From the NCBI GenBank assembly GCA_963668315.1, contig OY764216.1, positions 4,256,001 through 4,320,000 on the forward strand: a stretch of 64,000 nucleotides of DNA, read 5' to 3'. The position numbers and the translations under genes are program-made. Source of the stretch: Spirochaetia bacterium (GTDB lineage Bacteria > Spirochaetota > Spirochaetia > DSM-2461). The notes under the pieces are model-generated. The model made no database searches. It had not been told where the DNA came from and worked only from the letters and a program-made list of their open reading frames with translations. Below, piece by piece: positions 1 through 37,696 of this stretch. How positions within the stretch are numbered: the stretch's first letter is position 1; the number at the start of each line of letters is the position of its first letter.

Positions 1-401
1 CCCTTACTGGCGACGAAAGCGACAGCCCCTTTACCATCATGTTTGCCCACAACACTGGAATGATAGACAAAATGGCTCTGTCGCTGAAACATGAGAAGTC
101 CCAGAACGGGACCGAGAAAGACAGAATTGATCAAGCCCCAGCGGGCCGGTTCCGTTGCAGGCTGGTAAGTAACCGTTGTCCCATCCTCTATGAGGAAAAC
201 ACCGATTTCTCTCCAGTACATAAACATCCCGGAAGGGACCTTCATCATGACCCTTAACCGGGATTGATCCACTTCCTCCGGAATCGTAACAACTCCTCTC
301 TTGAAGTAGACATCGTAATTCTCAACAGGAACAATCGGGGTAAAGGGAATCACTTCCACATCTGAACAGACAGTCATCCCGAAGGTCTTGTAGTAATACA
401 C
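1..401 (-). CDS. HPr-kinase-like lasso peptide kinase (PadeK type), 5' part, runs off the left edge
   Basis: Not in ORF track. Manual translation from GTG at 401 (AGGAG RBS at 411-415): MYYYKTFGMTVCSDVEV...FLGPVLGLLMFQRQSHFVYHSSVVGKHDGKGAVAFVASKG, open to the window edge. It matches the 'Y..FG....S' start and 'LG..LG.LL.QR....H.S.V...G.AVAF' pre-Walker-A pattern of lasso-cluster kinases and lies directly downstream of the precursor. Confidence 0.8.
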   Translation of the reverse strand, partial: MYYYKTFGMTVCSDVEVIPFTPIVPVENYDVYFKRGVVTIPEEVDQSRLRVMMKVPSGMFMYWREIGVFLIEDGTTVTYQPATEPARWGLINSVFLGPVLGLLMFQRQSHFVYHSSVVGKHDGKGAVAFVASK

Positions 402-461: not shown

Positions 462-632
462 TTACGATGCGGAATAATCTTTGTTATCGGCAAAGGGATG
501 AGTGGTGGGATCGTCATCAAAAATGAGATCAACTCTCCACCAGTCATGCCAACCCAGTTTACCGACACCTTTTGTCAAATCCATTACCTCGCCAAGATCA
601 GTCATCTCGGGAGCGTTGTACACTTTTTTCAT
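462..632 (-). CDS. Lasso peptide precursor, 56 aa (21-aa leader plus predicted 35-aa core)
   Basis: Not in ORF track. AGGAGG RBS (638-643), ATG 632, TAA 462-464. Sequence MKKVYNAPEMTDLGEVMDLTK|GVGKLGWHDWWRVDLIFDDDPTTHPFADNKDYSAS has the YxxP leader motif, LG.V..LT with Thr at -2, Gly1, Asp9 and a C-terminal Ser. B1, B2, ABC and kinase genes are nearby. Confidence 0.9.
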   Translation of the reverse strand: MKKVYNAPEMTDLGEVMDLTKGVGKLGWHDWWRVDLIFDDDPTTHPFADNKDYSAS

Positions 633-858: not shown

Positions 859-2118
859 ATGATTCCAATGAATAAAAACTGGTCCCGGCTGACAAGGGAA
901 GAAGAGCTGCTTCTCGCGCTTCTGAATGATGATGACGAAAAAACGGGACAACTCATGGACTCCCATCCCTCCTTGAATTACATGCGATTCTTTGATTTAC
1001 TGACTCTTCATAGAATCAGTCCTTTAATAATGGCAAAATTACTCAAGAACTCCCCTCGTATCCCTTTGCCGGCGGAGTACCTTAAAATCGCCAAACTTGA
1101 TATTCTACGAAACAGCGCGTTTAGAAAACTTCGATTACGGGAACTGCTGAAAGTAGTATCGTTATTGAACAAGCACAATTTTGACATTACCCTGATGAAG
1201 GGTTTTTCCTATGACCCTGATGATCTTTTCTTGCGTTATTTCACTGATATAGACTTGCTGATTGATGAAGATAAGATCCTAGAAGCAATAACAGTATTAA
1301 CTGGAAACGGCTACAATTACAAAGGCAGTTTTATTCTTTCCGAAAAGGAGAAACTTGATATTAATGGGCAGCTGATCTGGAATAATCAATATCAATTTAC
1401 AAGCCCCGGAACACAACTGACAATAGAAATCCATACCAATCTATTTGAAAGAGACAGGATACGCTATGAGAACCTTGAAGTACTCCTGAATCACCCCGAG
1501 ATTTTCAAGAACAACAGAACATGGAGTGACAAGTTAAGCTGCTTTGTTCCCTGTACGGAAGCCTGTCTTCTTCTTTTATGCCTCCACGGTTCGCTTAAAC
1601 GTTCCCTGGCCAATGATTCCTTTATCCTGCGCCATATAACCGACATGGACATACTCTTTTCCCGGGGGATAGATAGCAGCTATTTCATCAGCTTAGTTCA
1701 GAATACTCAGACAGCTTATCACCAGGCCTTTGCCCTTAATCTCTACGAAAGGATAAAAAAAATAGACAGGATGGCTTTGACAGAATCGATAATGGCACTC
1801 CTCTCTGCCAAAGAACTTCGCCTTATGAAATACCACCTATCCTGTATGAAAAACCTATACCACAGCAGCCGTTTTTATCGGTATGTATATCATCTGACAG
1901 CCCCTTTTATCATCGGGGCCCGGGGAAAAAAACGTATTCTCTGGATTCTCTCGGCATTTTTTAATTCGAAGGTACAGCAGGAACAACGCTACATGAAATA
2001 CGGAATCACGAAGGAATCACCCTTAATTTATCTAACCTATCTCATTAACCCCTTTCAGTCGACCTGGCAATTTTTCAAAAAAACAGGAAGAATGATAGGA
2101 AAAACACATCAGCGGTAA
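859..2118 (+). CDS. Nucleotidyltransferase family protein (NTP_transf_5-like, lasso-cluster type)
   Basis: LMKG...RYFTDIDLLI and IEIH motifs; located inside the lasso cluster. Confidence 0.8.
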   Translation: MIPMNKNWSRLTREEELLLALLNDDDEKTGQLMDSHPSLNYMRFFDLLTLHRISPLIMAKLLKNSPRIPLPAEYLKIAKLDILRNSAFRKLRLRELLKVVSLLNKHNFDITLMKGFSYDPDDLFLRYFTDIDLLIDEDKILEAITVLTGNGYNYKGSFILSEKEKLDINGQLIWNNQYQFTSPGTQLTIEIHTNLFERDRIRYENLEVLLNHPEIFKNNRTWSDKLSCFVPCTEACLLLLCLHGSLKRSLANDSFILRHITDMDILFSRGIDSSYFISLVQNTQTAYHQAFALNLYERIKKIDRMALTESIMALLSAKELRLMKYHLSCMKNLYHSSRFYRYVYHLTAPFIIGARGKKRILWILSAFFNSKVQQEQRYMKYGITKESPLIYLTYLINPFQSTWQFFKKTGRMIGKTHQR

Positions 2119-3908
2119 TTTTCCGCCTGCAGATTAAAAAGTTCGAAGTAAAGGCCTTTCTTTTCCATAAGCTCATCATGGGTGCCTTCCTCGACGATAC
2201 GCCCCTTATCCATGACACAGATACGGTCGGCCATGCGTACCGTAGCCATTCTATGACTGATCAGCAAAGCCGTTTTTCTGGTAACCATAGATCTAAACCG
2301 GGAGAAAACTTCCAACTCTGCTTTCGGGTCCAGGGAGCTGGTTGGCTCGTCAAGCACGATAATCCCTGAATCTTTATAAAAGGCCCTTGCCATGGCCACT
2401 TTCTGCCATTGCCCCCCGGAAAGCTCTTTACCATGTTCGAATAAAACCCCGAGAAGGGTGTCGTATCCCTCATCGAGGTGTTCAACAAGATCTTCGGCCC
2501 CTGCCAGATTAACAGCTTCTTCCAACCTTTTCCTATCAAGGGGACTATTCCAGTCGCCTATATGGATATTTTCTCTCAGTGTCAGATTATATTTAACAAA
2601 ATCCTGGAAAATAACGCCCACATTTTCACGCAGATCCTGCAAATTCAACAACCGGATATCGTTTCCGTCAATTTTGATTGCACCGTCGTTGACTTCATAA
2701 AGCCTGCATAAAAGCTTGACAAGAGTCGTTTTACCGCAACCGTTCAGCCCCACAAGAGCTACGACCTCCCCTTCTCCTATCTCCAGGGAAAGATTATCCA
2801 GAACCTTGTTCTGCGATCGGGGATAGGTAAAGGAAACGTTCTCAAAAACAATCCCTCCGCTTAAGGGACACTTCAACGTCACTGGAATCTCCGGAGAAAC
2901 GATCTGAGGCTCATCATTAAGAAATTCGAATAAATTCCTTAAGAAGAGATTATGACTGTACAAGGAAGTCATTCCATTCAACGCACCTCTCAGAAACCCC
3001 TGTCCTCTCTGGAAAGCCTGATAGAACATGACGAAATCACCCACTGACACCTGGCCTTTCACCACGTCCTTTCCGACCCAGATATAGGCAGAAAACACCA
3101 GAATCACCATAAAAGTATTGCTTATAATCGTATAGAGAGTCCGCCTTGCATCAAGCGCATTTCTGATATTACGCAGTTCCTCCCTGCCCTTGTAAAAACG
3201 TTCCATAATGGTTCTGCCCAGGTGGAAAAGCCTTACTTCCTTGGCGTAATCCCTTTCCAGCATCATAAACTGATAATAAAATGAGCGGCGTTCCTTAACC
3301 GTACACTCCCTCTCCCTCCGATACTCCTTGGAAGAGAAGAAAAGACGATTCACCAGACCGGGCAGGGATGCCAGGAAGAGAACAAGTATAATGAGAGGAT
3401 TAAACCGCGCAATGATCCACAGGACTCCGGCCAGGGAAATGGCATTCTGCAGAATACCGGCCAGGGAGTTGACAATCATACGGGGACGGCTGGCCGCCTG
3501 CTCCTGGGCCCTCTGAAGAGAATCGAGTTTCTTCGAATCTTCGAAAAACTGATAATCAAGGGTTTCCGATTTCTCCAGCAGCATTCCTGTCATGTAATCG
3601 GTCACCCGCCTCCCCTGCTCACGGCTGATCCATTGGGCAAGGGCTCCTGCGATATGAGAACCAAGAGTAACTAAACCGGTTAATACGATGACGATAAGGA
3701 TACGGGAATAATTACCCTCTCCTCCAGCCGCCTGGGCGACGGCATCAACCATCCTTTTTAACAGGAAGAGAAGAAGCACGGGAAACACACCGTTTACCAG
3801 CTGCAGTAAAAAGTTCAATACCAGCCAGAGGGGTGAACTATCCCAGACGAATCGAAGGGAAGTCAATATTCCCGATAGGATCTCCCGTATTTTTTTGCTC
3901 ATTTTCAT
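2109..3908 (-). CDS. ABC transporter, fused permease/ATPase (lasso exporter D candidate)
   Basis: N-terminal TM helices, Walker A GLNGCGKT, signature LSGGQ, Walker B IIVLDE; follows B1-B2. Confidence 0.9.
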   Translation of the reverse strand: MKMSKKIREILSGILTSLRFVWDSSPLWLVLNFLLQLVNGVFPVLLLFLLKRMVDAVAQAAGGEGNYSRILIVIVLTGLVTLGSHIAGALAQWISREQGRRVTDYMTGMLLEKSETLDYQFFEDSKKLDSLQRAQEQAASRPRMIVNSLAGILQNAISLAGVLWIIARFNPLIILVLFLASLPGLVNRLFFSSKEYRRERECTVKERRSFYYQFMMLERDYAKEVRLFHLGRTIMERFYKGREELRNIRNALDARRTLYTIISNTFMVILVFSAYIWVGKDVVKGQVSVGDFVMFYQAFQRGQGFLRGALNGMTSLYSHNLFLRNLFEFLNDEPQIVSPEIPVTLKCPLSGGIVFENVSFTYPRSQNKVLDNLSLEIGEGEVVALVGLNGCGKTTLVKLLCRLYEVNDGAIKIDGNDIRLLNLQDLRENVGVIFQDFVKYNLTLRENIHIGDWNSPLDRKRLEEAVNLAGAEDLVEHLDEGYDTLLGVLFEHGKELSGGQWQKVAMARAFYKDSGIIVLDEPTSSLDPKAELEVFSRFRSMVTRKTALLISHRMATVRMADRICVMDKGRIVEEGTHDELMEKKGLYFELFNLQAENYR

Positions 3909-3931: not shown

Positions 3932-4390
3932 CTATAGAAATTTCCCATCAAATGCTTCGAAAACTGCGAATTTATCCAGTCCGTAAAGCTCCCCCAGAAG
4001 CACTTTCCCGTCTTTTTCCAGCCAGGCATGAGCTTCGACAGGATATCCGGGGCGACGCCTTCGCGCTCCTATTTTAAGAGTGACATCCCACCCGCACCGG
4101 CGGAGAAGAATGAATCCGGCCAATGCCCTGGGAAGGCATTTAAGGAGACCGGGAAACGCAATTCCCGTGGATTCAATCAGCCAGGCCAGTCTTTCAGGAT
4201 CGGACAACGTCCGGAGCTCTACCCGCGGACTTTGCTTTTTGACCCAGGCAAGTACCTTGGGAAAAGAAGTAACGGTCATAAGGATGCGTATTTTGAAAAG
4301 GAGAAAGACAGCCTGTCGAAAGAGTTTCCGCTCTCCCCTCTCCATGGAAAAGACAGTTATTATTCTCTTAAGCTTCCTGTTCAAGGACAC
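3932..4390 (-). CDS. Lasso peptide B2 leader peptidase (transglutaminase-like)
   Basis: KCLPRALA...IG...EAHAWLE Cys/His motifs. Start uncertain: the track gives 4456, but GTG 4390 or TTG 4384 overlapping the B1 end is more plausible. Confidence 0.9.
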   Translation of the reverse strand: MSLNRKLKRIITVFSMERGERKLFRQAVFLLFKIRILMTVTSFPKVLAWVKKQSPRVELRTLSDPERLAWLIESTGIAFPGLLKCLPRALAGFILLRRCGWDVTLKIGARRRRPGYPVEAHAWLEKDGKVLLGELYGLDKFAVFEAFDGKFL

Positions 4391-4646
4391 CCTGACTGAC
4401 CATCTGCTGAATAATTTTTTCAAGATCTCTGCGGCAAAGGTCCTCTTCCACATCATACTCCTGCATGATAAGAGAGACTAAATCCTCCAGAGAAGCACTT
4501 CCCTTCTCAAGTTTCTGCCAGACAAGACTTCCCGTATCGTTCAGAGAGAAATATTTACCTTCCTGAACATGCATCAGTACGGATTCGCCGTCCATTTCTG
4601 TTGATATGACATCACTGGCAATTGTAAACGTGTCGGATAGTTTCAT
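4368..4646 (-). CDS. PqqD-family RiPP recognition element (lasso B1)
   Basis: DGESVLMHVQEGKYFSLNDTGSLVWQKLE...EYDVEEDLCRRD is a typical RRE. Start could be 4646 or 4658. Confidence 0.92.
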   Translation of the reverse strand: MKLSDTFTIASDVISTEMDGESVLMHVQEGKYFSLNDTGSLVWQKLEKGSASLEDLVSLIMQEYDVEEDLCRRDLEKIIQQMVSQGVLEQEA

Positions 4647-4839
4647 GTGGTTGATCATACTTGTTACCTTACTTGCGGGTCAAGCTGATTTACTATAGAA
4701 AGGCATATTATCAACTTGGAGGATTGTTATTTATGGAATAATTTTTATTTTTATTTCTGGAAAGTATAATTCACACATTCTTCAATTTTGCCCCATCATC
4801 CCTTCATATCACAAGAGTTAGGACTGTTTTTTTTGTTTA

Positions 4840-5934
4840 ATGTTGTATATTCTTAGGCATATGAAAAAAGAGGGAAAAATTAATCCTAACATTGAACTTT
4901 TACGGATTATATCGATTCTTGCTCTTGTTCTCTACCATGTTGCTTGTATGGGAGAAAGAAACAGTCACCTGGAAGAGCTTTTTCTTTACATTGCCGACAG
5001 GGGTTGGATGGGAACAGATATGTTTCTCGTTATAGCGGGCTATTTCTTCTATCGATCTTTTCTTCATACATATGAAGGAAATATATATTCATTCCTAAAA
5101 AGCCGTTTTTTTCGAATAGTCCCCTCCTATTTCCTCTTTGTTATTTTATACTTAACGATCGGATTATTTATTGAAAGGAAGGTAGGAAATACTTTTATAT
5201 TACCCAATGCTTATTGGCTTTATTTCCTTACATTTACGGCGAATATCCCCATGGCCATGGGCAATTGGAGCGGTGTTGCCCTGGAAGGTTTATTTGGGAT
5301 TTCCCTCCTTGTACAACTTTACTTAATTTTTCTCTTGATATTTTCCATAAGTAAAGACAAAAACAACCTTAAGAAAATACTGCTTATAATAGAAACGGTC
5401 GTGCTTATCAGCCGTTTCATTCCTTTGCTTAAAAACACAGCATGGTTCAGCTATTTTTTCACATTGACTAGAATGGACGGTTTCATTTTCGGGATTCTTT
5501 TGGCGGTTCTATATGAGGATAAGCAAGCTAAGGAACTGCTTATCCGACTAAAAACGAAAATTCTTCTCATTTCGTTTTTAGCGTTATTATCAACAGCCCC
5601 TTTTACAGGGATATTATCAGTTAACCACAGCAATACTTCCTGCCTGGCTTTTCCCCTTATAGGACTGTTCTTTTCCGCTCTACTGAACTATATTCTTACC
5701 TGGAGAATAAGGATTCCCCAGTTCTACGCGGGAGATTTTGTCTATTCCGTTTATCTTGTCAAACTCCCGTTAATATATATTGTTCTACGTTTTTTGGATC
5801 ATCTTCCCAATATAACACATATACCCTTCATCTCTGTTATAGCATCTCTGATATTCTGTATAGCCTGGGGAGCAGGATTAAGCTTTATTCATAAACATAG
5901 CTGTAAGCTGATAAAAGGAATTAACAAAAAGTAA
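4840..5934 (+). CDS. Membrane acyltransferase (Acyl_transf_3/OafA-like)
   Basis: IELLRIISILALVLYH, GWMGTDMFLVIAGY and FLKSRFFRIVP motifs; multi-TM; stop is 3 nt before the PKS start. Confidence 0.8.
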   Translation: MLYILRHMKKEGKINPNIELLRIISILALVLYHVACMGERNSHLEELFLYIADRGWMGTDMFLVIAGYFFYRSFLHTYEGNIYSFLKSRFFRIVPSYFLFVILYLTIGLFIERKVGNTFILPNAYWLYFLTFTANIPMAMGNWSGVALEGLFGISLLVQLYLIFLLIFSISKDKNNLKKILLIIETVVLISRFIPLLKNTAWFSYFFTLTRMDGFIFGILLAVLYEDKQAKELLIRLKTKILLISFLALLSTAPFTGILSVNHSNTSCLAFPLIGLFFSALLNYILTWRIRIPQFYAGDFVYSVYLVKLPLIYIVLRFLDHLPNITHIPFISVIASLIFCIAWGAGLSFIHKHSCKLIKGINKK

Positions 5935-5937
5935 CAT

Positions 5938-8900
5938 ATGAAAGATCGAAATTACTATGAAAGTTTGGAAGGCGCCATCGCCGTAATCGGAATGTCTGGA
6001 GCTTTCTCCAAATCGAAAGACATTAATGAATACTGGCAAAACATCCTTGCAGGCAGAGAATGTATTGATGATCTGACCGCTGAAGAGTTACAGGCCGCCG
6101 GAATACCCCAGGAACTTTCCGATAATCCCCTTTATGTGCGTCGGACCGCCGGCCTGGAATCGGCCAAGGAGTTTGACCCTGCCTTTTTTGGATATACCCC
6201 TGCGGAAGCCCGGCTTATGGATCCCCAGCACCGGCTTTTCCTGGAACACTCCTGGAAGTGTCTGGAAGACGGAAATATTATACCCGATCATTACGACGGT
6301 CTTATTGGTGTTTTCGGCGGATGCAGCCAGAATAATTATCTCTTAAAAAACCTCATTTATAGCGATCAGGCGGATAAAGCCGGTGCCTTTCAGATAATGA
6401 TCGGTAACGACAAGGATTATCTGACGACCAAAGTTTCCTACAAACTGAACCTCAAGGGCCCCAGCATTACCATGCAGACTGCCTGTTCCACATCCCTTAC
6501 GGCCATTCAGCAGGGATGCCTCTCTCTGCTCAATTACCAAAGTGATATGGCTCTGTGCGGGGGCGCTTCCGTCAATGTACCCTACAGGGGAGGCTACCTT
6601 TATCAGGACGGGATGATTTTTTCTCCCGATGGACATTGCCGCGCCTTTGACAAGGATGCAAACGGAACGGTTTTCGGTGACGGTGTAGGAGTTGTCCTTC
6701 TTAAGAGATTTGAAGATGCCCTAGAGGACGGAGATCTAATTCATGCCATAATCCGCGGGTCGGCGATTAATAACGACGGATCGGAAAAGGTCGGATATAC
6801 GGCTCCCGGTGTTAAGGCCCAAGCCGAAGTCGTCGCCACCGCCCTGGCAGTGGCTGATGTATCGGCAGATACAATCGGTTATGTTGAAACCCACGGCACA
6901 GGAACGCTTATGGGTGACCCCATCGAACTGGCGGCCCTGACAGAAGCCTTTCGTATGTCTACCGAGGAAAAAAACTACTGCCACATTGGATCGGCAAAAC
7001 CCAATATAGGCCATCTTGATGCGGCGGCAGGCGTCGCCAGTTTCATCAAAGCCGTCATGGTTCTCAAAACAGGGACTATACCGCCCTTGACAAACTTCAC
7101 ATCCCCCAATCCGGCATTAAACATAGAAGAGACTCCTTTTACCATAACTTCCACCCCCGTAAAATGGGATACGGAAGTGATACCCCGCCGAGCCGGAGTA
7201 AGCGCTTTAGGAGTAGGAGGAACGAATGTTCATCTGGTACTGGAGGAATATACTCCTTCGAAAGAACCTTCACCGGAACCGGGTGATAAGCCCAATCTTC
7301 TCGTTTTCTCCGCTAAATCAGAGGAATCCCTGACTAGACAGAAGGAACTTTTCTCTACGTTCCTGAAAAAAAAGGATATCTCCCTGCCTTCCCTGGCCTA
7401 TACGCTCCAGAAAAAACGGGTACCCTTCCCCTATCGGGACTTTCTGGTCACAGACGGAAAGGGTGAATATGACGAAAGTACATTCATAAATAAAAAGTCC
7501 CTTCCCTGCAACGGTTCGCCCGAAATTGCGTTTATATTCACCGGTCAGGGAAGTCAATATCCTAATATGGGAAAAAGTCTTTATGAATCGGTACCCTTCA
7601 TTAAAAAAATCATGGATCATGGTTTTTCTATTCTGGAACGAACCCATAATCTACCCCTCAAAGAAATTATCTACCCTGAAGGCTCCGCTTCCCTTAAGGA
7701 AAGCGAAATGAAACTTATGCAGACGACCTATACACAGCCAGCTTTGTTTCTTTTGGAATACGCCCTGGCCAGATATCTGATAATACTCGGTTTACAGCCG
7801 GCCTATCTTCTCGGCCATAGCCTGGGAGAGTACACCGCCGCCTGCCTGAGCGGGATTTTCACATTCGAAGATGCCCTGTCTCTCGTTGCGGAGCGGGGAC
7901 GGATCATGCAGACGGCACCAAAGGGTTCCATGATAAGCATCCCCCTTTCCCGTAACGCGATTGAATCCATGATTACCGGTGATCAGCTTCAGGTATCTGT
8001 CATTAACGCCCCGGATCGCTGTGTTGTATCCGGATCGGACGAGGCGGTGGACCTGTTTCAAAAAGAACTGACGGAAAAGGATATCCGCCACTCCCGTTTA
8101 AAGACCAGCCATGCTTATCACTCTTTTCTCATGGATAGCATACTGGATGAGTTCGCCTCAAGCTTTTCGTCCGTGACCTTTCATAAACCGGAGATTCCGA
8201 TTATCACCAACCAGTCCACAGAATCTTTCGGGTCGGAAAATATGGAAAGTGCTGAATACTGGGTAGATCAGCTCCGTCAACCGGTTGATTTTGATAAGGG
8301 GATTTCTCTTCTTCTCAAGAATAAAAACGTTACCCTGGTAGAAGTCGGACCCGGAAATACACTGATAACCCTAGCAAAGCTCAATCCTGATATGAAGGGA
8401 GATAATCTCTGCCTCCCTACGGTAAGAAACCCTAAACAGCAAACTCCGGACCATACCTTTTTCCTCACGGCTCTTGGAAAACTCTGGCAGAAAGGCCATT
8501 CTCTGCATTGGGATGAATTCTACGGTGAAAGGAAGCCCGAATATATCCGTATCCCCACCTATGAATTCGATAACAGAAGCTACTGGATAGAAGGGATAAA
8601 AAGCAAGAAATCCCCCCTTCCAATTGAGGAGACCGAGGAAAATTATATCGAAAAAAGGGAAGAACTGACGGTAAAAGAGAAGGTTCTTCATGTCTGGAGT
8701 GAAATCTTCGGCAACGATGATATCGGCGAAACGGATAATTTTTATGATATGGGAGGGCACTCCGTCCTGGCGACGCAGCTGCTTTCCAGAATAAACGAAA
8801 CCTTTAATCTGGAAATCGGCATGGGAGCCCTGCTCATGGAGCCGACACCGGCTAATTCCCTTGCTCTAGTGGAAGAACAGTTGCCCCGAAAAAAGCCCAC

Positions 8901-9771
8901 AGAAGTCCAATCTCCTTCTTCTCCGAAAGAGAAAGTCCTGCCCATGATGTTTCCCGTACAGAAGGGAGATCCTGAGAAAAAACCTCTTTTCATGGTGGCT
9001 GGTATGTACTTTAACCGGTATGATCATGAATCAGAGGAAGAGGGGCAGAGGAAATACGAAGAGGATTACTTCCGCTACTTCAGCACCCTGGTCAAAAACA
9101 TCGGAACGAGCCAACCAATATATGGTTTTCGACCAAAGGGGATTTTCCTTAATGAAAAACCCCATAAAAATGTTAAAGCAATGGCGGAGTCTTATATTAC
9201 AGAAATGAAAAAGATTCAGCCCGAAGGGCCTTATCTGATAGGAGGGGAATGTATCGGAGGTATTATTACTTACGAAATGGCTATGCAATTACAAGGACAG
9301 GGAGAGGAGGTCAAACACCTTATACTGATAGATACGTTCTATCCCAGGGCTAAAGCCATGTTTCGGGATGCTATTCGAGTAACATTATGGAGGTTTAAAG
9401 ACGAATTTATTACACCTCTGAAAAACAAGGAAAAATCCTTCATTAACCGTCTGTTAACCGTAATTAATCACTTGCAATTGTTTTTATTTCCCATAGGAAA
9501 AAAACAGAAAAATTTAAAACAGGTACAATACAGTAATGTGGCTTATATGTATCGGTTAATGAGTTATTCTCTTAAATTGTACGATAAAAAAAATATAACC
9601 CTTCTCGTGAATCAAGAGTGGAGCGATGACATCAGCCCCACCCTCAATTGGAAGAAAAAGCATATATTAAACGTAAATCTAATAACCGTTCCCGGAACTC
9701 ATGTTTCCTGTTTAACGGATTACGGACATATAACGGGCAAACACATAAGAGATATAATTGATAATGATTAA
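5938..9771 (+). CDS. Single-module type I PKS: KS-AT-ACP-TE
   Basis: KS QTACSTS, HGTGT and NIGH; AT GQGSQ, GHSLG and HAYH; ACP GGHS; TE-like domain with GECIG and C-terminal GTH. Confidence 0.93.
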   Translation: MKDRNYYESLEGAIAVIGMSGAFSKSKDINEYWQNILAGRECIDDLTAEELQAAGIPQELSDNPLYVRRTAGLESAKEFDPAFFGYTPAEARLMDPQHRLFLEHSWKCLEDGNIIPDHYDGLIGVFGGCSQNNYLLKNLIYSDQADKAGAFQIMIGNDKDYLTTKVSYKLNLKGPSITMQTACSTSLTAIQQGCLSLLNYQSDMALCGGASVNVPYRGGYLYQDGMIFSPDGHCRAFDKDANGTVFGDGVGVVLLKRFEDALEDGDLIHAIIRGSAINNDGSEKVGYTAPGVKAQAEVVATALAVADVSADTIGYVETHGTGTLMGDPIELAALTEAFRMSTEEKNYCHIGSAKPNIGHLDAAAGVASFIKAVMVLKTGTIPPLTNFTSPNPALNIEETPFTITSTPVKWDTEVIPRRAGVSALGVGGTNVHLVLEEYTPSKEPSPEPGDKPNLLVFSAKSEESLTRQKELFSTFLKKKDISLPSLAYTLQKKRVPFPYRDFLVTDGKGEYDESTFINKKSLPCNGSPEIAFIFTGQGSQYPNMGKSLYESVPFIKKIMDHGFSILERTHNLPLKEIIYPEGSASLKESEMKLMQTTYTQPALFLLEYALARYLIILGLQPAYLLGHSLGEYTAACLSGIFTFEDALSLVAERGRIMQTAPKGSMISIPLSRNAIESMITGDQLQVSVINAPDRCVVSGSDEAVDLFQKELTEKDIRHSRLKTSHAYHSFLMDSILDEFASSFSSVTFHKPEIPIITNQSTESFGSENMESAEYWVDQLRQPVDFDKGISLLLKNKNVTLVEVGPGNTLITLAKLNPDMKGDNLCLPTVRNPKQQTPDHTFFLTALGKLWQKGHSLHWDEFYGERKPEYIRIPTYEFDNRSYWIEGIKSKKSPLPIEETEENYIEKREELTVKEKVLHVWSEIFGNDDIGETDNFYDMGGHSVLATQLLSRINETFNLEIGMGALLMEPTPANSLALVEEQLPRKKPTEVQSPSSPKEKVLPMMFPVQKGDPEKKPLFMVAGMYFNRYDHESEEEGQRKYEEDYFRYFSTLVKNIGTSQPIYGFRPKGIFLNEKPHKNVKAMAESYITEMKKIQPEGPYLIGGECIGGIITYEMAMQLQGQGEEVKHLILIDTFYPRAKAMFRDAIRVTLWRFKDEFITPLKNKEKSFINRLLTVINHLQLFLFPIGKKQKNLKQVQYSNVAYMYRLMSYSLKLYDKKNITLLVNQEWSDDISPTLNWKKKHILNVNLITVPGTHVSCLTDYGHITGKHIRDIIDND

Positions 9772-10014
9772 TCAGCCAGCCAGGCGTCCTTCGATATAGC
9801 GAACCATCTTGTCCACGGAACCGAAGTTGTCACGGACCATATCTTCCGTTTCCACTTCGAATCCGTGGGTATTTTTCATATATGCCGATATCTCTACCAG
9901 ACCGAAAGAATCAATAATCCCCTCATCGATGAGCGATTTATCGTGGGGGATCTCTTCTAATTCCACCATAAAATTGTCCGCGATAAATTCGAGTAAACCT
10001 TTTTTAATTTCCAT
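9772..10014 (-). CDS. Stand-alone acyl carrier protein
   Basis: 80 aa, acidic, GIIDSFG phosphopantetheine site, DNFGSV tail. Confidence 0.9.
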   Translation of the reverse strand: MEIKKGLLEFIADNFMVELEEIPHDKSLIDEGIIDSFGLVEISAYMKNTHGFEVETEDMVRDNFGSVDKMVRYIEGRLAG

Positions 10015-10054
10015 AACTGTTCAAGCTCCTTAAATGTATGAAAGATATTTTATC

Positions 10055-12028
10055 TTAATTCTCATGAATTTCCACCCGTTTAAGTGATTCATCCAGACTT
10101 TCATGTCGGGGATTATCCATGGCCCGGCTGATCATCTGAGTGGAAAGAATGAAAGTAATGAGCATATTGTCCCTATAGCCTATCTGCTTTGGCATGCGGC
10201 GGGAAAACTTATTTATCAGCCGATTCACATATTTCTTATCGAATACTCCGGCCATATCCACCGCTTCCTCCGAAAGAAAGGGAGCCGCTTCGTCGGTCAG
10301 ACGTCCGTCGGAGAAGAAAGATTTCAGATCCGGCGCCTGATAAGGCTGCTTGGGCCTGTCTATAATGGAAGGGGGCACCACATCCCGGAAAGCATCGCGA
10401 AGGATGTGCTTCTGAGAAAATCCCTTAAGTTTGTAGTCGTCAGGATAGGCGAAGGCCTTTTCCACCAGACGGTGATCAAGGAAGGGATAGCGTCCCTCAA
10501 CACTGTGTCCCATGGACATCCGGTCCCCCTGGGAAGAGAGAAGGTAGCCGGGCAACAGGGTTTTCATCTCTAGATACTGCTCCTTCTGCATAAGGGACCA
10601 TTTCCCATAATCCGCAGGGAGGGTCTCTTTCAGGTTGGCCAGCAGTTCCTCCTTCTCATAGGTGACGGCATAATCCTTGTTCAGGTAGTTCCCCAGAATC
10701 CGGTTGTTATTCATGCGGATATTCAGGCCCATCAGATCGTTGTCGAAATCATCAAGGAAATCCTCGTAGTACATCTTCATGAAACCCATCTGGGTCTTGT
10801 CCTTGTAGTGGGAGAGGTGGGGATAAAGCTGGCCCAGCAGCTTTTCCACAGGGGCGTTATCCCTGTTGTCCCTCCACATCTGCAGCATCCGTACTTCCTT
10901 GAAAACATCGTAGCCGCAGAGAATCTCGTCGGCCGCTTCACCGGTCAAAACGACCTTGATGTTCTCTTCCCTCACCTTTCGGCTCAACAGGTAGAGAGGT
11001 ACTGGAGCGGTACGGAAGACGGGCCGTTCAAAGTGATAAGCCGCTTCGCCCAGGTAACTATTGATCATAGTGTAATCAATCTTCAAATCGATATGCTCGG
11101 AATTCAGCCGTTCCACCATCTCCTGCTGATAGACCGACTCATCATAGCCTTTGTCCGTAAAGGAGACAGCAAATGTCTTGAACCGGTCCTTATTGTGGAT
11201 TTTCGTCAGATGGGCAATAACCGAGGAGTCGATTCCCCCGGAAAGATAATTCCCTACGGGCACGTCACTTCTAAGCCGCAGGCGCACGGCGTCGCTTAGA
11301 AGCTCCACCATCTCCTCCCGGGCCTGTTCGTAATCCGGCGTCGGCAAGTCGTAATTCTCTCCCAGCTGATAATAGGTAAACCGGCGGGGCTCTTCCCCGA
11401 TGCGGTATTCAGCATAATCTCCGGCGGGCAGGGAAATAATATCGTTGTAGACGGTCCGGTCTCCCAGAGTGTTCCAGAGAAGACCATGCTCGTAGAGATT
11501 CTTCATGTGAAAGGAACGGTGGTATCCGGGAATCTGATCAAAGCACTTGAGTTCAGAGGCGAAATAGAAAACCCCCATATGGTCCAGCACATAGAGAGGA
11601 CGGATACCGTAGCGGTCCCGGGCCACAGTCAGAACCTTCTCCTTTTTATCCCAAAGGAGGATGGCGAACTGTCCGTTAAAGGAGGAAAAGGCGGCGGGAC
11701 CGTCCAGTTCAAAGGCCTTGAGAACTATCTCCGTGTCGCAGGTCGTCTTGAATTGAACACCCCGCTTCTCCATCTCCGCCCTAAGCTCAATGAAGTTAAA
11801 AACCTCCCCGTTAAAGGAGATGACGTATCTTCCCGTCGACATAGGCTGATGCCCCCCGGAGAGATCCTGAATGGAAAGCCGGGCATGGCCCAGGGCGACA
11901 TGGGAATCGGTGTAGAGCCCCCATCCGTCGGGTCCCCGGTGGCCTAGAACGGAAATCATCTTCTTCAAGGTGTCCTTCTGTTCTTCTCGCTCTCTATAAT
12001 ATCCTAAAAATCCGGTTATTCCGCACAT
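10055..12028 (-). CDS. asnB: Asparagine synthase-family glutamine amidotransferase
   Basis: MCGI N-terminal Cys, HRGPD, FNGE, LSGGIDS, TGEAADE and PFLDH motifs. Confidence 0.9.
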   Translation of the reverse strand: MCGITGFLGYYREREEQKDTLKKMISVLGHRGPDGWGLYTDSHVALGHARLSIQDLSGGHQPMSTGRYVISFNGEVFNFIELRAEMEKRGVQFKTTCDTEIVLKAFELDGPAAFSSFNGQFAILLWDKKEKVLTVARDRYGIRPLYVLDHMGVFYFASELKCFDQIPGYHRSFHMKNLYEHGLLWNTLGDRTVYNDIISLPAGDYAEYRIGEEPRRFTYYQLGENYDLPTPDYEQAREEMVELLSDAVRLRLRSDVPVGNYLSGGIDSSVIAHLTKIHNKDRFKTFAVSFTDKGYDESVYQQEMVERLNSEHIDLKIDYTMINSYLGEAAYHFERPVFRTAPVPLYLLSRKVREENIKVVLTGEAADEILCGYDVFKEVRMLQMWRDNRDNAPVEKLLGQLYPHLSHYKDKTQMGFMKMYYEDFLDDFDNDLMGLNIRMNNNRILGNYLNKDYAVTYEKEELLANLKETLPADYGKWSLMQKEQYLEMKTLLPGYLLSSQGDRMSMGHSVEGRYPFLDHRLVEKAFAYPDDYKLKGFSQKHILRDAFRDVVPPSIIDRPKQPYQAPDLKSFFSDGRLTDEAAPFLSEEAVDMAGVFDKKYVNRLINKFSRRMPKQIGYRDNMLITFILSTQMISRAMDNPRHESLDESLKRVEIHEN

Positions 12029-12029
12029 A

Positions 12030-15000
12030 CTATCGTTTCCTTACATTCTTCAGACGCTGAGCCGCATGACGGCTCCGTTCTGCCCGATCCAACAATTTAC
12101 CTATCCCCTCATCGGAAGAATTCATTTCCTGTCCCAGGTATCCCGCCAGACCTTTGACGGTGGTATGGATGAAAAGATCCGTCACGGGAATAGCACGGCC
12201 GAACCGCTCAGAGAGTTCCCGCTGAAGTTGAATAATGTGGAGAGAGGAACCTCCCAATTCAAAAAAGTTTTCCTCCCTGCCCACCTTCTCCAGCCCCAGC
12301 AGCTTCTTCCAGAGATCGGCGATAAACCCCTCCCCTTCCCCTTCGGGCAGAGTAAAGGGCTTATCCGACGGGGTATGGCAGATTCCCGGCTCGGGCAGGT
12401 TCTTCCTGTCCAGCTTCCCATTGGCGTTAAGGCTGATTTGCTCAACGAAGATAATCCGCTTGGGAACCATATGAAGAGGAAGACGCCGGCTCAGAAAAGA
12501 GATCAGCTCTTCCACGCTCAGCTCTTCACGTTTGACTATATAGGCAACAAGGGACTGATCGGCCCCAAACTCTCCGTGAACAATCACGACGGCCGTTTCC
12601 ACGGCGGGGTGGTCGTTAATCCCATTTTCGATTTCACCCAGCTCAATACGAAGCCCATGGAGCTGCACCTGGCTGTCGTTCCGGCCCAGATAGAGAATCT
12701 CCCCCTTGAGATTCCACTGCCCCAGATCTCCCGTCTTATACATCCGCCCCCCATCGAAAGGGTTGGGAACAAAGCGTTCCGCCGTCAGCTCCGGCTTGTT
12801 CAGATAACCCCGGGCCAGCTGAACACCGGCCAGATAAATCTCTCCGGTAACGCCGGGTGGCAGAGGATTCAATGCCTCATCCAAAATATGGATTTTCGTA
12901 TTGGCGACAGGCCTTCCTATGGGTACAACCCGGCAATCAGGCTTACAAGGCCAGTAGGTTACATCGATGGATGCCTCGGTAGGCCCGTAAAGATTATGGA
13001 GCCGGACATGGGGCAGCGTTTCATAGAACTCCCGCACCACCGCGGCGGGCAGAGCTTCTCCACTACACATCACATCACGCAGAGAGGGACAGTCCCCGGG
13101 ACGACAGCTCTTTAGGAACTCCCGTAGCATGGAGGGTACGAAATGGATAAGGGAAATATTCTCTCTCCCTATCGTTTCGATAAGATAGCCATTGTCCTTG
13201 TGACCCTCCGGTTCGGCGATGACCAGGGGCACTCCTTTCATCAAAGGCCACCAGAATTCCCAGCCGGAGACATCAAAATTATAGGGCGTCTTCTGGAAAA
13301 GCACATCCTTCCCGGTCAGCTCATACTCCTCATCCATCCACAAGATACGGTTAATCAAACCTCTATGGGTGATTTCCACTCCCTTGGGGCGACCGGTTGA
13401 ACCGGAGGTATAAAGGATGTAAACCCGGGAATCGGGATCTATAGCCGGGAAAAGCCCCTCTTCCTTACCGGCTGAAAAATCAAAGGTATCCAGGGCGGTA
13501 AAACCTTCCAGCCCGGAAAAGAGCGGGCGGTATTTCTCGTTGGAGAGGATCAGAGATAGCTGTGAATCCCCGCGAATATAAGCGATGTAATCGGCGGGAA
13601 GAGTCGGCTCGATAGGCAGATAGGTTCCCCCGGCCAGAACGATGGCGTACATACCTATGACCATCTCGAAAGAGCGTTCCAGGGAGAGGCCGACAATCGT
13701 CTCCGGACCGACGCCCTTCTCCTTAAGGTAAGCCGCTACAATCCTTACACGCCGGGCCAGTTCGCCGTAAGTCATGGTTTCGTCGCGGAAAATCAGCGCC
13801 CTTTCTTCGGGCCGAATCCGAACCTGTTCCAGAAAGGCGTCAATGACGCCGCCGGTAATCGGATAGTCCCGTTCCGTCCCATTCCAGGCAGCAATCATGT
13901 CCCGGCTCCGATCATCCATCACGCCCATGGAACCTACAGCGAGACTGTCCCTGTCCAGCCCCTGTTCCAGAAGAATCAGGAAGGAGGAAAAAAATCCCTC
14001 CACCCTCTCCCGGGTAAAAAGATCGGAACAGTACTCCACGGCCCAGCGGAAACGGTCGTTTTCCTGCCAGAAGTAAAAAAACAGATCCAGCTGGGCCGCA
14101 TCGGGAGCCGCATCCAGGGATTTAACATCCAATCCATCCAACTTCAATCCCATGGGGTGTTCGAAGGTGAATCCCACTTGGAAGAGAGGATTGTACTTGC
14201 CATCCCGCTTTCCCCTATTCAGCTTAACCACTTCCAGATAGGGAACGTTCTGGTTACGGTGCATGCCCAGCATCTTAACCCTGATCTGACGTAAAAGTTT
14301 CCTGAAGGTCATCCCCTCCCCGATGTTCAGGCAGAGGGGCAGGATATTCACAAAACAGCCGATGGTATCCTCAAAACCTTCCGGCCGGTTTGTCCGAGGA
14401 ATACCGATGGAGAAACGATTCTGACCGGAGAACCGGTTCAGAAAAACCGCGTAAGCAGAGAGAAGCACGAGAAATGGGTCGGAGCCCTGATTCCGGCAAT
14501 AGGCATCAAGTTTATCCTTAAGAGGACCGGGAAGCGACCCAAAAATCCGATGGCCCCGGGATGAGGGTATGGGCTGCCTATCTTTATCGGCAGGAAGGTT
14601 CAGTAAAGAACTTTCCAGGTGTTCATTCTCCCAGTAGGCAAGCATCTCTCGGTATTTGTCCGAATTGGCGAATTGTTCATACCAAACACCGTAATCGTCA
14701 TAGGAGCGGACCGGCTTCAGATCGGGTTCCCGGGATTTGGATAGTGAGTTATAGATTTCACTAAACTCGCGGGAAAAAATCTCCTTGGAACGAAGATCGA
14801 AAAGAATGTGATGAAAGAGGAATAGGAGATAGATTTGGGAGTCCTTTCTCCAGAGATGAGCTCGAAATAGGGGTTCCTCGTTCAGAACGAAGGGTGTATT
14901 AATGACCGAGGCACAATCCTCCGTTGAATAGAAACTATCATGATAGACAGGTTCTACCTTACCACCCCAATCATACCGCTCAGACATGATATCAAGGACC

Positions 15001-15146
15001 CGCTTAAATTGAATGCGATCAAGGGGACCGATGATTTCAAAGAGCGAGGCGAGGTTGTAAGCCCTGTTATCCGGATTCAGACGGGATACGAGCCGAAACT
15101 GTTCTTGTATGAGTGAGATTTTTGACTCTCCTTTCCCTTTTTCCAA
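12030..15146 (-). CDS. NRPS module C-A-T (A domain predicted Ser)
   Basis: C motif HHILFDL; A motifs YTSGSTGRPKG, YGPTE, YKTGD and NGKLD; T site LGGSS. Hand-aligned specificity code DVWHMSLIDK. Confidence 0.92.
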   Translation of the reverse strand: MEKGKGESKISLIQEQFRLVSRLNPDNRAYNLASLFEIIGPLDRIQFKRVLDIMSERYDWGGKVEPVYHDSFYSTEDCASVINTPFVLNEEPLFRAHLWRKDSQIYLLFLFHHILFDLRSKEIFSREFSEIYNSLSKSREPDLKPVRSYDDYGVWYEQFANSDKYREMLAYWENEHLESSLLNLPADKDRQPIPSSRGHRIFGSLPGPLKDKLDAYCRNQGSDPFLVLLSAYAVFLNRFSGQNRFSIGIPRTNRPEGFEDTIGCFVNILPLCLNIGEGMTFRKLLRQIRVKMLGMHRNQNVPYLEVVKLNRGKRDGKYNPLFQVGFTFEHPMGLKLDGLDVKSLDAAPDAAQLDLFFYFWQENDRFRWAVEYCSDLFTRERVEGFFSSFLILLEQGLDRDSLAVGSMGVMDDRSRDMIAAWNGTERDYPITGGVIDAFLEQVRIRPEERALIFRDETMTYGELARRVRIVAAYLKEKGVGPETIVGLSLERSFEMVIGMYAIVLAGGTYLPIEPTLPADYIAYIRGDSQLSLILSNEKYRPLFSGLEGFTALDTFDFSAGKEEGLFPAIDPDSRVYILYTSGSTGRPKGVEITHRGLINRILWMDEEYELTGKDVLFQKTPYNFDVSGWEFWWPLMKGVPLVIAEPEGHKDNGYLIETIGRENISLIHFVPSMLREFLKSCRPGDCPSLRDVMCSGEALPAAVVREFYETLPHVRLHNLYGPTEASIDVTYWPCKPDCRVVPIGRPVANTKIHILDEALNPLPPGVTGEIYLAGVQLARGYLNKPELTAERFVPNPFDGGRMYKTGDLGQWNLKGEILYLGRNDSQVQLHGLRIELGEIENGINDHPAVETAVVIVHGEFGADQSLVAYIVKREELSVEELISFLSRRLPLHMVPKRIIFVEQISLNANGKLDRKNLPEPGICHTPSDKPFTLPEGEGEGFIADLWKKLLGLEKVGREENFFELGGSSLHIIQLQRELSERFGRAIPVTDLFIHTTVKGLAGYLGQEMNSSDEGIGKLLDRAERSRHAAQRLKNVRKR

Positions 15147-15208
15147 TTTATCCCTTCTTCCCTTTATTCCATATCAATATCACGATGTCCCAGATGTCAG
15201 AGCATTGA

Positions 15209-17638
15209 TTATCTATCTATTTTCTCTTTAAGAAAATCGGCAAGCTTAACGACATGGGGTTGATTCAAGATCCCCATATGATCATCGGGGAGTTCCAGAA
15301 TACCAACTTGACCGGATGTCAAATCATTCCATCCCAGATCATCACTGAAGCTTTCTCCCTTGCTGTAAACATTTGTCAAAGCCCTTATCAGATAAATATC
15401 CCCGTCAATGGGAGTGGCTACCTTATCAAATACTTCGATGGCCTGATCATTGATGAAATCCCGCATCGCCTCGATATAAGCCTGATCTGGATTTAATTTA
15501 TTCTTTGGCTCTCCAGGTTTTCCCGATCTGTGTTTAAGAGACCTTAAGGCAGAGTATATCTTACCGAACGGCGTAAGTCTACGTGCATGGGGAAGATGGG
15601 AATCCAGAATAAACAGTTCCCCCCTGGCCCCTTCATTCGCTTTAATGAGTTTTGATGCTTCAAAAGCTATCATGCCCGCAATTGAAACTCCCAGAATATG
15701 ACAGGGCCCCTGGGGATAATACTTGCGGATATCCCTTAAATAAGCCCCGGCCATTCCCTGGATGGACACATACTCCCACTCGTCAATGGTTCCCCGCTGT
15801 ATATTATCTATCAGCTGTTCCTCATAGGGAAGGAATACACCATAAACTGGTCTCTCCCCTTCAAAACAGGCGGCCAGTTCTGAATAGATGTCAATTCCCC
15901 CCAGACAGAAGAGAGGGACCCCTTCAGTCGTATTATTCAGAAGGAGCACGGTCATCTCCTTATCTGATCCGGATTTAGCCTGATTTATCATATCATCGAT
16001 CACGGGATTCATGAAGAACGCCCCCAAGGGAACCGTCAGTCCGCAGAACTCACCAATCTCCCTTAAAAGCTGAACCGCCAGAATTGAATTCCCCCCAATT
16101 TCAAAAAAATTCTGATCTGTCGAGATATCCTCCCGCTGTAGAACCCTTTTCCAGACAAAGAGGATTTTCTCCTTTAAAGACAGGTCATCCCCATTTCCCT
16201 CAAGAACGATCTCCTTCACCTGCGGAAGGGGTAGATTTTTTCTGTCAATCTTGCCGTTTGTGTTCAGGAGAAACTTATCGAGGCGGACGAAATAGGCGGG
16301 GATCATATAATCGGGAAGAATCCGGGAAAGATGCTCCACCAGCACTCGCTCCTCCACAGGTTTACGTTCTATCAAATAGGCCACCAGATCCTTCATACCC
16401 TTGCGGACAACTTGAGGATGGACAACTGCACTTGCGATCTCGTCAAGCGTCAGAAGAGCGCTCTCGATTTCTCCCAGTTCGATCCGGAAACCGCGGATTT
16501 TCACCTGAAAGTCGGAACGGCCCAGACACTCAAGCCTGCCGTCGGCCATATAACGGACCAGATCTCCGGTCTTATATATGGTCTCCCCGGGGGTAAAGGG
16601 ATTGGGGATAAACACTTTCTCGGTCAAATCGGGCCTTTTAAAATAACCCGCAGCCAGCCCTTTGCCTCCTATGAAAAGATCCCCTTCGACCCCATGGAGC
16701 ACTTTATTCATATTCTCATCAAGAATATAGATTTCCGTATTATCAATGGGTTCACCTATGGATATAGGTTTATCCCTCTCCACTTTTTCGATGGTAGACC
16801 ACACGGTCGTTTCTGTCGGACCATACATGTTCCAAAGCTCGCCGCAACGGTCCAATAATTCCTCTGCCAGTTCCGGCGTTAACGCTTCCCCTCCGCATAA
16901 CACCTTCAGATTATCCTTCCCTTTCCAGCCTGCGTCGATAAGCATTCTCCATGTTACGGGAGTAGCCTGCATTACGGTAATGTCATAACTATCCAGGGCA
17001 GAAATTATGGAATCGGGATCATGTGATTCATTTTTATCCAGAAGAAACAATTGCGCACCCGTACGAATAGGCAAGAAAATCTCAAGTACGGAAATATCAA
17101 AGGATACCGTTGTGACAGCAAGAAGTCGATCATTTGCTGTTAATCCGGGTTTCTTAGCCATGGAATCGAGAAAATTGTCCATGGCAGGGCGGGGTATCAT
17201 AACCCCCTTAGGTTTACCGGTGGAACCGGAAGTAAAGATAATGTAGGCAATACTCTCTCTGTCCTGGCAAAACTCCCGGCTCACTGGTTCTGGAACACTC
17301 TCATCGGAGGAAAGAGAATCCACATCAATCTTGACAGAATCAGAAGGAAGCTTTGACAGATAATGGCCATGAGTAAGAATCAGGTCCGGTTTAACATCCT
17401 CCAGAATCATATTAATCCTTTCGGCAGGATGGTCCGGGTCCAGAGGGATATAAGTGTTGCCGGTAATAAGGCAAGCATTTACTGCGGCGACAAGAGCAGG
17501 AGTTCTATCCAGGTAGATACCTACGTTTAACCCCGTTTTGGGGAATTCTGAAATCCTATGACAGATAAGATTAATAAGATTCCCAAACTCAACTTTTTCC
17601 CCATGGTAGACTAGCGTATCCATTGCTTCTTTCGTCAT
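15209..17638 (-). CDS. NRPS A-T-TE (A domain predicted Gly)
   Basis: FTSGSTGKPKG, YGPTE and NGKID; T site IGGNS; TE GVSIAG and DDH. Hand-aligned code DILQLGMVWK. Confidence 0.9.
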   Translation of the reverse strand: MTKEAMDTLVYHGEKVEFGNLINLICHRISEFPKTGLNVGIYLDRTPALVAAVNACLITGNTYIPLDPDHPAERINMILEDVKPDLILTHGHYLSKLPSDSVKIDVDSLSSDESVPEPVSREFCQDRESIAYIIFTSGSTGKPKGVMIPRPAMDNFLDSMAKKPGLTANDRLLAVTTVSFDISVLEIFLPIRTGAQLFLLDKNESHDPDSIISALDSYDITVMQATPVTWRMLIDAGWKGKDNLKVLCGGEALTPELAEELLDRCGELWNMYGPTETTVWSTIEKVERDKPISIGEPIDNTEIYILDENMNKVLHGVEGDLFIGGKGLAAGYFKRPDLTEKVFIPNPFTPGETIYKTGDLVRYMADGRLECLGRSDFQVKIRGFRIELGEIESALLTLDEIASAVVHPQVVRKGMKDLVAYLIERKPVEERVLVEHLSRILPDYMIPAYFVRLDKFLLNTNGKIDRKNLPLPQVKEIVLEGNGDDLSLKEKILFVWKRVLQREDISTDQNFFEIGGNSILAVQLLREIGEFCGLTVPLGAFFMNPVIDDMINQAKSGSDKEMTVLLLNNTTEGVPLFCLGGIDIYSELAACFEGERPVYGVFLPYEEQLIDNIQRGTIDEWEYVSIQGMAGAYLRDIRKYYPQGPCHILGVSIAGMIAFEASKLIKANEGARGELFILDSHLPHARRLTPFGKIYSALRSLKHRSGKPGEPKNKLNPDQAYIEAMRDFINDQAIEVFDKVATPIDGDIYLIRALTNVYSKGESFSDDLGWNDLTSGQVGILELPDDHMGILNQPHVVKLADFLKEKIDR

Positions 17639-31294: not shown

Positions 31295-31557
31295 TGCCGA
31301 GAAAGCCCGGATTGCCCTGATGGCGTTCAAAGAAGAGAAAACCGTTGCAGAGATTTCACAGGAAACAGGAGCCCATCCTTCCATGATCAATAAATGGAAA
31401 AAGGAACTTCTTGAGAATGCTGATATTGTATTCAGTAAGGGGAAATCAGATAATGAGAAGGAACTGGAAAAAGAACAGGAAGAGCTCTATAAAACGATTG
31501 GGAAACTTCATGCTGGAAATGACTTTCTAAAAAAAAATTAAAAGAACAGGGCCGATA

Positions 31558-32403: not shown

Positions 32404-32896
32404 GGGTGTATTGACTGGAGGGTTCACAATATCTATAGTTGAAATCGAAACGCTAGCTCCCACTTCGAATTATCCAGATCAGAGAACTTAATTAATTTAT
32501 GTTAGTAGGATATATGACCAGTGTGTAAAATTTATAATAATTTCTTTATAAAGATCGATTATTAACGTAAATTCATTTGACAGTAAATATAACTTTACCT
32601 ATCATTTACTGGTAACTGATTTGAGTTTTCTGTTTTTTTACTATTAAAGCGCGAAACGTATTGTCTTTGGTGTATCAACCCCCTGGTGAGGCAGCAACTA
32701 TGGAAATTAGGATTTTTATTAGGAATTATAATTTATACTGAAATACAGCTCTCGGTAAGAGAAAAGAACAGATTTATTATTCTAAAAACACAAGGAAATT
32801 TTAATAGAGATTCAGTAATCAAATTAGTTATAAATATTTATTAATCAGGATTATGGAATCCATGTTATTAGAATAGATATAAGAGGCACAACGGGC

Positions 32897-33787: not shown

Positions 33788-33836
33788 TATAAAATCCTAA
33801 GAAATATTAAATTACTATTTTGCAGAAGTAATAAGA

Positions 33837-37688: not shown

Positions 37689-37696
37689 CATAAATC

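Follow-up and report, generated by a model that had tools for sequence, protein, structure and literature searches.

The minus-strand gene at 462..632 of the 64,000-nucleotide stretch of DNA analysed here (the window) encodes a lasso peptide precursor within a lasso biosynthetic cluster. Our analysis indicates that its product is probably a class II lasso peptide of the pseudomycoidin/Bsf kind, closed between Gly1 and Asp9, likely phosphorylated and possibly hexosylated at Ser35, and encoded in a surface-polysaccharide locus.

Precursor gene

The gene, its ribosome-binding site and the predicted parts of its product are as follows:

462..632, minus strand: precursor gene A, 56 aa
638..643, minus strand: Shine-Dalgarno AGGAGG, 5 nt upstream of the ATG
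570..632, minus strand: leader, 21 aa, with Tyr(-17)xxPro(-14), Met(-12), Gly(-8) and Thr(-2); predicted cut after Thr-Lys
465..569, minus strand: core, 35 aa, with a predicted Gly1-Asp9 ring (Asp9 codon 543-545) and terminal Ser35 (codon 465-467)

The translation of A is exactly the peptide quoted in the initial annotation, which had described a 56-codon minus-strand frame preceded by AGGAGG. That annotation also called the gene unannotated, which holds for the first-stage open reading frame track but not for public resources: both of the public gene-call collections that were searched contain the exact 56-aa protein.

Contigs from sequencing runs X5 and X6, which derive from one sample, cover A in a related strain. 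Among the differences listed, all nine internal substitutions within A are synonymous third-position changes, a tenth difference replaces one start codon by another, and none falls at 633-676, the region of the AGGAGG. Forty of the 65 differences over 300-1000 were listed, ordered from 331 to 788, and the set for A is probably, if not certainly, complete. With 20-27% of possible changes being synonymous, nine synonymous changes out of nine have a probability of ~6e-7 to 7e-6 under neutrality. Judged by these sequences, A is a gene under purifying selection. Run X1 is near-identical to the window and may be its source, and run X4 does not span A; none of the runs listed as containing the sequence is of RNA. 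Two overlapping plus-strand frames were rejected, one of 75 aa, in which 10 of 11 changes alter the product, one of them by introducing a stop, and one of 47 aa, which shares third positions with A and shows five synonymous and two non-synonymous changes. A promoter scan returned three sites against 2.1 expected, and a terminator scan found none.

A lasso-leader pattern, written for this analysis, matched a single one of the 47,217 Met-started frames of 28-90 aa in the 5.62-Mb genome; this match is A itself, which falls within the lasso cluster. The leader reaches 21 bits against the NCBIfam model NF033528 lasso_cyano (cut-off 33), and a Pfam search of A returned no match. The only candidate of a word-indexed protein search was the query itself, and HMMER over 1.84 billion representatives gave four matches, among them the query, two long repeat proteins that we set aside, and P0003 (E 3e-4), a 55-aa precursor-like peptide that is similar in leader and ring and comes without genomic context. 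A metagenome scan yielded one locus from 209 pattern matches, similar in the leader only and with an unrelated core. Searching PDB sequences gave weak, leader-only matches to lasso precursors (E 0.6-1) and a match to an unrelated binding protein (E 0.007), which was treated as chance.

Biosynthetic cluster

The following genes surround A:

1..401, minus strand: 5' part of the HprK-like peptide kinase K (312 aa in full, G000:C1:4255463-4256401, with H114, K137, D154 and D155)
G000:C1:4253499-4255457, minus strand, outside the window: lasso cyclase C, 652 aa, directly after K
859..2118, plus strand: nucleotidyltransferase N (PsmN/BsfN-like; PF14907, 79 bits; DxD at 130-132), divergent from A
2109..3908, minus strand: ABC exporter D, 599 aa
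3932..4456, minus strand: leader peptidase B2, 174-aa frame (PF13471; NF033537, 83.7 bits, cut-off 33; Cys107, His143)
4368..4658, minus strand: RRE / B1 of the PqqD family (PF05402, 74 bits; NF033536, 68 bits, below the cut-off of 80)

This full cluster, with C just outside the window, bears out the identification of A as a lasso precursor; the cyclase, which was out of sight of the initial annotation, lies 543-2501 bases left of the window start. C matches NF033535 over the whole model length with 500 bits (cut-off 525) and the AsnB model with 248 bits, contains SGGLDSS and is without the N-terminal Cys of true AsnB. It is full length and open, has an intact ATP loop and is 49% identical to the cyclase of G017, a genome with all seven cluster genes. 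C, B1 and the precursor all score below their NCBIfam cut-offs, and a PDB search with C matched amidotransferase-fold proteins only. Neither of the two AsnB-like genes elsewhere in the window is required as a cyclase; the closer of them (10055-12028) begins with Met-Cys-Gly and fits a true AsnB.

The co-location of an RRE, a B2 peptidase and a lasso cyclase with A is that of class II, and the His-Lys-Asp-Asp of the kinase, the C-terminal Ser of the core and a nucleotidyltransferase with DxD are the features of a pseudomycoidin-type system. N is called PsmN-like from PF14907 and DxD rather than from an alignment to PsmN itself; this gene, with the hexosylation that it may bring about, and the polysaccharide-locus setting had gone unnoticed in the initial annotation. 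By gene content and catalytic motifs, the cluster (B1, B2, C, D, K and N, plus A) is complete. Its G+C content is 45%, against 51% for the genome. We assign the host to the spirochaetes because its genome contains three FlaA genes (spirochaetal) above cut-off and K groups with the kinases of two Spirochaetaceae records.

Leader, core and the G017 ortholog

An ortholog of A occupies the same position in G017, with a 62% identical precursor and a 34-aa core. The [Y/W]xxP motif and Thr(-2) expected of a class II leader are present in A and kept in the ortholog, the two leaders being identical at 16 of 21 positions, and the core of A is free of Cys, in line with the absence of a disulfide in class II. 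This core contains W7, H8, D9, W10, W11, seven Asp and S35. Asp9 is the only Asp/Glu acceptor at positions 7-9 and is kept in G017, as are Gly1, Gly6-Trp7, Arg12, Asp14-Leu15, Asp18-20, Thr23-His-Pro-Phe26-Ala27 (the THPF block) and the terminal Ser. The initial description of the core as Trp-rich and acidic-tailed is borne out by conservation for W7, D14 and D18-20 but not for Trp10, Trp11, Asp28 and Asp31, and past N29 the two cores share only their last residue.

The G017 ortholog is letter-identical to an entry of the LassoPred supplement (PMC12214591, supplementary file 3, row 1037), in which five rows are labelled spirochaete. LassoPred independently predicts the cut between Lys and Gly that had been proposed for A, together with a 9-residue ring, in agreement with the Gly1-Asp9 closure suggested initially and with the retention of both residues in G017. 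The upper plugs that it predicts are ranked 26, 16 and 31.

Kinase clade and probable phosphorylation site

HprK-like peptide kinases are described as modifying the precursor before cleavage, with the terminal Ser as the target for paeninodin and pseudomycoidin (PMC9266682, PMC6993621) and Ser3 as the target in the Bsf (PMC10368454) and linear polyphosphorylated peptide (LPP; PMC13381572) systems. His-Lys-Asp-Asp is given as the kinase motif of phospho-lasso clusters (PMC9266682), and PsmN is reported to be required for one or two hexoses on the phosphate of pseudomycoidin, by a route that the authors left open (PMC6993621).

In a quick maximum-likelihood tree of 75 kinases, K falls in a five-member spirochaete clade (SH-aLRT 99), where it is joined in turn by the kinase of G017 (98), kinase K1 of G015 (98) and the kinases of the two Spirochaetaceae records (99). 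The precursors adjacent to these kinases have a terminal Ser in four of five cases, and the fifth (L034) ends in Gly with Ser as the penultimate residue. We also observed that the Spirochaetaceae lasso precursors L034:3158-3283 and L076:3009-3143, found with the nearest kinase relatives of K, have Gly1, Asp9 and two or three Trp in cores of 20 and 23 residues, within B1-B2-C-A-K-D clusters.

For a broader comparison, 79 loci were fetched by cyclase alignment, from the best 80 of 577; 61 of them held candidate precursors, giving 78 candidates after one antisense match was dropped. Within this sample 26 of the 78 candidate cores have a terminal Ser and 52 do not, against 8.5% Ser inside, in a count over loci that are not independent. 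Position 3 of the core of A is Gly, so that there is no Ser/Thr at the other known phosphorylation site. Because position 3 is Gly and Ser35 is conserved, Ser35 is our best guess for the phosphosite, and Thr23, also conserved, could be modified instead.

Predicted product

The pairing of lasso leaders with B1 is textbook, and B1 would bind the YxxP leader of A. K would probably phosphorylate Ser35 of the full-length precursor, B2 would cleave between Lys(-1) and Gly1, and C would adenylate Asp9 and very probably close a 9-residue macrolactam around the C-terminal part. We expect the predicted lasso to be stably threaded, with good though not full confidence. Given the conserved THPF block and the LassoPred ranking, Phe26 is the likeliest upper plug, which would leave a loop of ~17 and a tail of ~9 residues. 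The chances are about even that N would lead to one or two hexoses on the phosphate, and D would export the product.

A kinase-dependent gain of 80 Da had been foreseen in the initial annotation, and the presence in the cluster of an HprK-like K with His-Lys-Asp-Asp fits this prediction. The calculated monoisotopic masses are 4041.87 for the ring-closed core, 4121.84 with phosphate, 4283.89 with one hexose added and 4445.94 with two. Lasso topology is not reliably given by fold predictors.

Relatives and cyclase-less clusters

Homologs of B2 occur in four of the 38 genomes of the family, own included, and the kinase in the same four; the lasso B2 model matched in three of 401 sampled genomes of the phylum, again including its own. 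G015, a 96% complete genome of the same genus, has its cluster on one contig between PKS and sugar-transferase genes, which is the slot occupied in the window:

L008:3222-10275 (G015:C35): two precursors, two kinases, N, D, B1, B2 and a 291-aa gene

A search of the G015 genome for a lasso cyclase matched only the PKS-linked AsnB, which is 82% identical to the AsnB of the window, and neither precursor has Asp/Glu at positions 7-9. The 291-aa gene (6459-7334) has a predicted phosphoribosyltransferase-like fold, with a PqqD-containing protein as its best structural neighbour. The G015 cluster suggests a linear variant that relies on B2, unlike the LPPs with their dependence on a signal peptidase, and is a candidate B2-dependent linear phosphopeptide system with an additional candidate tailoring enzyme; our literature search found no report of B2-dependent linear systems by title or abstract. 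In G014, D directly follows K and the contig breaks inside K, so the precursor/cyclase region is not covered.

Further short-core loci were seen along the way. Two G408 loci (L100:7578-15862 and L101:864-8197) contain spirochaete K, N, D and B1/B2-like genes, and their precursors, each directly before a probable lipoprotein gene, have cores of ~10 residues with Ser at position 3; a search of the G408 genome found no lasso cyclase. L102 (G147:C17:8000-27000) holds a B2 homolog and, near 1982-2044 on the minus strand, a lasso-leader-like stretch with a very short core, and no cyclase match was found in the G147 genome.

Alternative readings

The unique motif match in the genome, the position of A directly before K, the ortholog at the same position and the all-synonymous divergence make it extremely improbable that A is a chance frame in an intergenic stretch with the true precursor elsewhere, even though A is without a Pfam match, has only a sub-threshold NCBIfam match and has few homologs. 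The cluster of G015 bears on another reading, in which cleavage and phosphorylation take place without ring closure, or the phosphate goes to Thr23, and the cyclase is in decay: this same-genus relative keeps B1, B2, K, N and D in the same slot without a lasso cyclase and with precursors that have no ring acceptor, and linear analogues of phospho-lasso peptides are described from Bacillota (PMC13381572). We regard this as quite improbable for A, since C is full length and open, has an intact ATP loop and shares 49% identity with its G017 counterpart, and since the two genomes that have C also have Asp9.

The ring could also form without yielding a stable 35-residue lasso, the product being a branched cycle, a lasso threaded only as long as it bears its phospho-hexose cap, or a peptide whose long tail is lost to proteases. 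Unmodified pseudomycoidin, which likewise has a 9-residue ring, was purified as a branched cycle, although a single Phe sufficed to keep pseudomycoidin threaded (PMC6993621). Carboxypeptidase truncation of lasso tails is described (PMC13352647), and the tail of A after N29 is conserved only in its terminal residue. However, the core offers W10, W11, R12, F17, H24, F26 and Y32 as bulky plug candidates, R12, H24 and F26 being conserved, and we consider the loss of a stable lasso unlikely. A threaded, Ser35-phosphorylated class II lasso peptide is the reading that we retain.

Core length

A 2026 review gives 13-33 aa for lasso cores and puts the longest loop at 20 and the longest tail at 18 residues (PMC13352647), and LassoPred gives 14-33 aa for solved structures and 12-160 for predictions (PMC12214591). 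The 35-aa core of A exceeds the characterised range by two residues. In the sample of 79 loci (from the best 80 of 577), for which phylum was assigned by hand from record titles and cuts were set by pattern, 61 of the 78 candidate cores have Asp/Glu at positions 7-9; 22 of these 61 predicted cores are at least 35 aa long, and all belong to the cyanobacterial group (22 of 38, against 0 of 23 others, the longest of which has 31). The core of A is long for a non-cyanobacterial member and ordinary for its cyclase clade. Its unusual length, stressed in the initial annotation, thus stands against the characterised maximum of 33 but not against the predicted cores of the clade. Two or more Trp occur in three of the 78 candidate cores from the same best 80 of 577, two of those three being spirochaetal. 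Separately, the Methanobacteriaceae records L046, L079, L088, L090 and L096 combine same-clade cyclases with kinases and lasso-like precursors.

Polysaccharide-locus setting

On one side of the cluster, ~6 kb to the left of where the window begins, lies a gene for a priming sugar transferase (PF02397). The other flank, ~55 kb long, encodes acyltransferases, MBOAT, glycosyltransferases of the GT2, GT1, GT61 and WecG types, two polysaccharide flippase-type genes, RgpF, PKS/NRPS-like genes and transposases. A sugar-transferase homolog lies within the fetched flank in nine of the 79 loci (from the best 80 of 577). Popov et al. describe paeninodin-like and LPP clusters as often lying in capsular-polysaccharide loci and state their role as unknown (PMC13381572). 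From gene context, a cell-surface role with the neighbouring polysaccharide is more likely than an antibiotic role. There is an outside chance that the peptide is a cell-surface glycan carrier, an over-length lasso with a hexosylated Ser35 phosphate, which the polysaccharide machinery encoded alongside would go on to extend or decorate.

Several features of this locus deserve a record of their own. Left of the window, L001:9710-13484 contains the sugar transferase, whose N-terminal part is weakly GGDEF-like, together with a predicted lipoprotein-like frame and a 566-aa frame for which no family match was found; this trio flanks the peptide cluster in G000 (own genome), G014 and G015. Inside the polysaccharide locus, window positions 4840-17638 encode an acyltransferase, a type I PKS of one module with an additional domain at its C-terminus, a free ACP, an AsnB-type amidotransferase, an NRPS module and an AMP-binding/carrier protein. 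These may form a system for polysaccharide acylation; the PKS and AsnB are conserved beside the cluster in G015. A dense transposase patch (several of Mutator-family and integrase-core types) interrupts the locus at 30095-44020. At 55133-61652 lie a second NRPS module and a 436-aa protein that matches Asn_synthase only in part, and two frames there gave no Pfam match at E 1e-7.

Significance

If made as predicted, the product of A would exceed the 33-residue maximum of the lasso cores characterised so far, in a phylum without a structurally characterised lasso member. LassoPred states that solved lasso structures come from three phyla only (PMC12214591), and no characterised spirochaete lasso was found in the titles and abstracts of the literature searched. 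A cyclase able to handle 26 residues of loop plus tail would be useful for grafting. A possible link to capsular polysaccharide is noted in Bacilli (PMC13381572), and the same setting recurs here in a distant phylum. The genus would also offer a lasso-versus-linear pair, as the cyclase and Asp9 are kept here and both are absent from the same slot in G015; if true, this pair would test whether the knot or the phospho-sugar end matters in the phospho-lasso class.

There is no new chemistry and no new system in the cluster of A. The initial annotation overstated the surprise: clusters of this type have been characterised, a prediction of the ortholog has already been published, and 35 aa or more is a common core length among predicted cyanobacterial members (from the best 80 of 577). 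Its claim of novelty may hold for the core string itself, which was not found in the seven LassoPred (PMC12214591) supplementary files searched, but the G017 ortholog is already a LassoPred prediction. The value of A is that of a concrete expression target with an over-length core, an unstudied phylum and a ring-less sister cluster for comparison.

Comparison with known systems

By gene content, the closest characterised system is pseudomycoidin (psm, Bacillus pseudomycoides DSM 12442), as described in PMC6993621. The two have the seven gene types A, C, K, B1, B2, N and D in common, as well as a ring between residue 1 and Asp9, a terminal Ser as the expected phosphosite and a DxD nucleotidyltransferase. 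They differ in core length (35 aa here against about 24) and in the first core residue (Gly1 against Ala1; PMC6993621), and the present cluster stands apart by its spirochaete host, its three oppositely oriented gene units and its Tyr-type leader.

Paeninodin (pade, Paenibacillus dendritiformis; PMC9266682, PMC13381572) is likewise class II, with a His-Lys-Asp-Asp HprK-like kinase and a C-terminal Ser, and its relatives are often found beside capsular-polysaccharide genes (PMC13381572). However, paeninodin clusters are described as confined to Bacillota and as having WxxP leaders (PMC13381572), and the pade cluster is presented without an N gene (PMC6993621); with its YxxP leader and FlaA-bearing spirochaetal host, A falls outside the narrow paeninodin family as drawn in PMC13381572. 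The Bsf system of Bradymonas sediminis FA350 (PMC10368454) resembles ours in its Gram-negative host, its seven gene types and the Tyr(-17)/Pro(-14) spacing, whereas BsfK is reported to act on Ser3 of the core, and the core of BsfA has 21 aa and follows a leader with Ile(-2). A has Gly3, Thr(-2) and a core ending in Ser, which places it outside the Bsf subfamily. LPPs are defined by the absence of a cyclase and by a leader peptidase of the signal peptidase I type (PMC13381572), and the cyclase and B2 present here set A apart from them.

The Spirochaetota entry of LassoPred (PMC12214591) is a prediction and has a 34-aa core with one Cys, unlike the Cys-free core of A. The longest characterised lasso peptides, pandonodin (33 aa with an 18-aa tail) and achromonodin-1 (30 aa with a 20-aa loop), as listed in PMC13352647, compare with A in length only, the PDB sequence search having shown no sequence similarity. 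With its predicted split into a loop of 17 and a tail of 9 residues, A would hold a record for total length only, and for neither loop nor tail. A is a new member of the known kinase and nucleotidyltransferase kind of lasso system, and not a paeninodin, Bsf or LPP peptide in the narrow sense.
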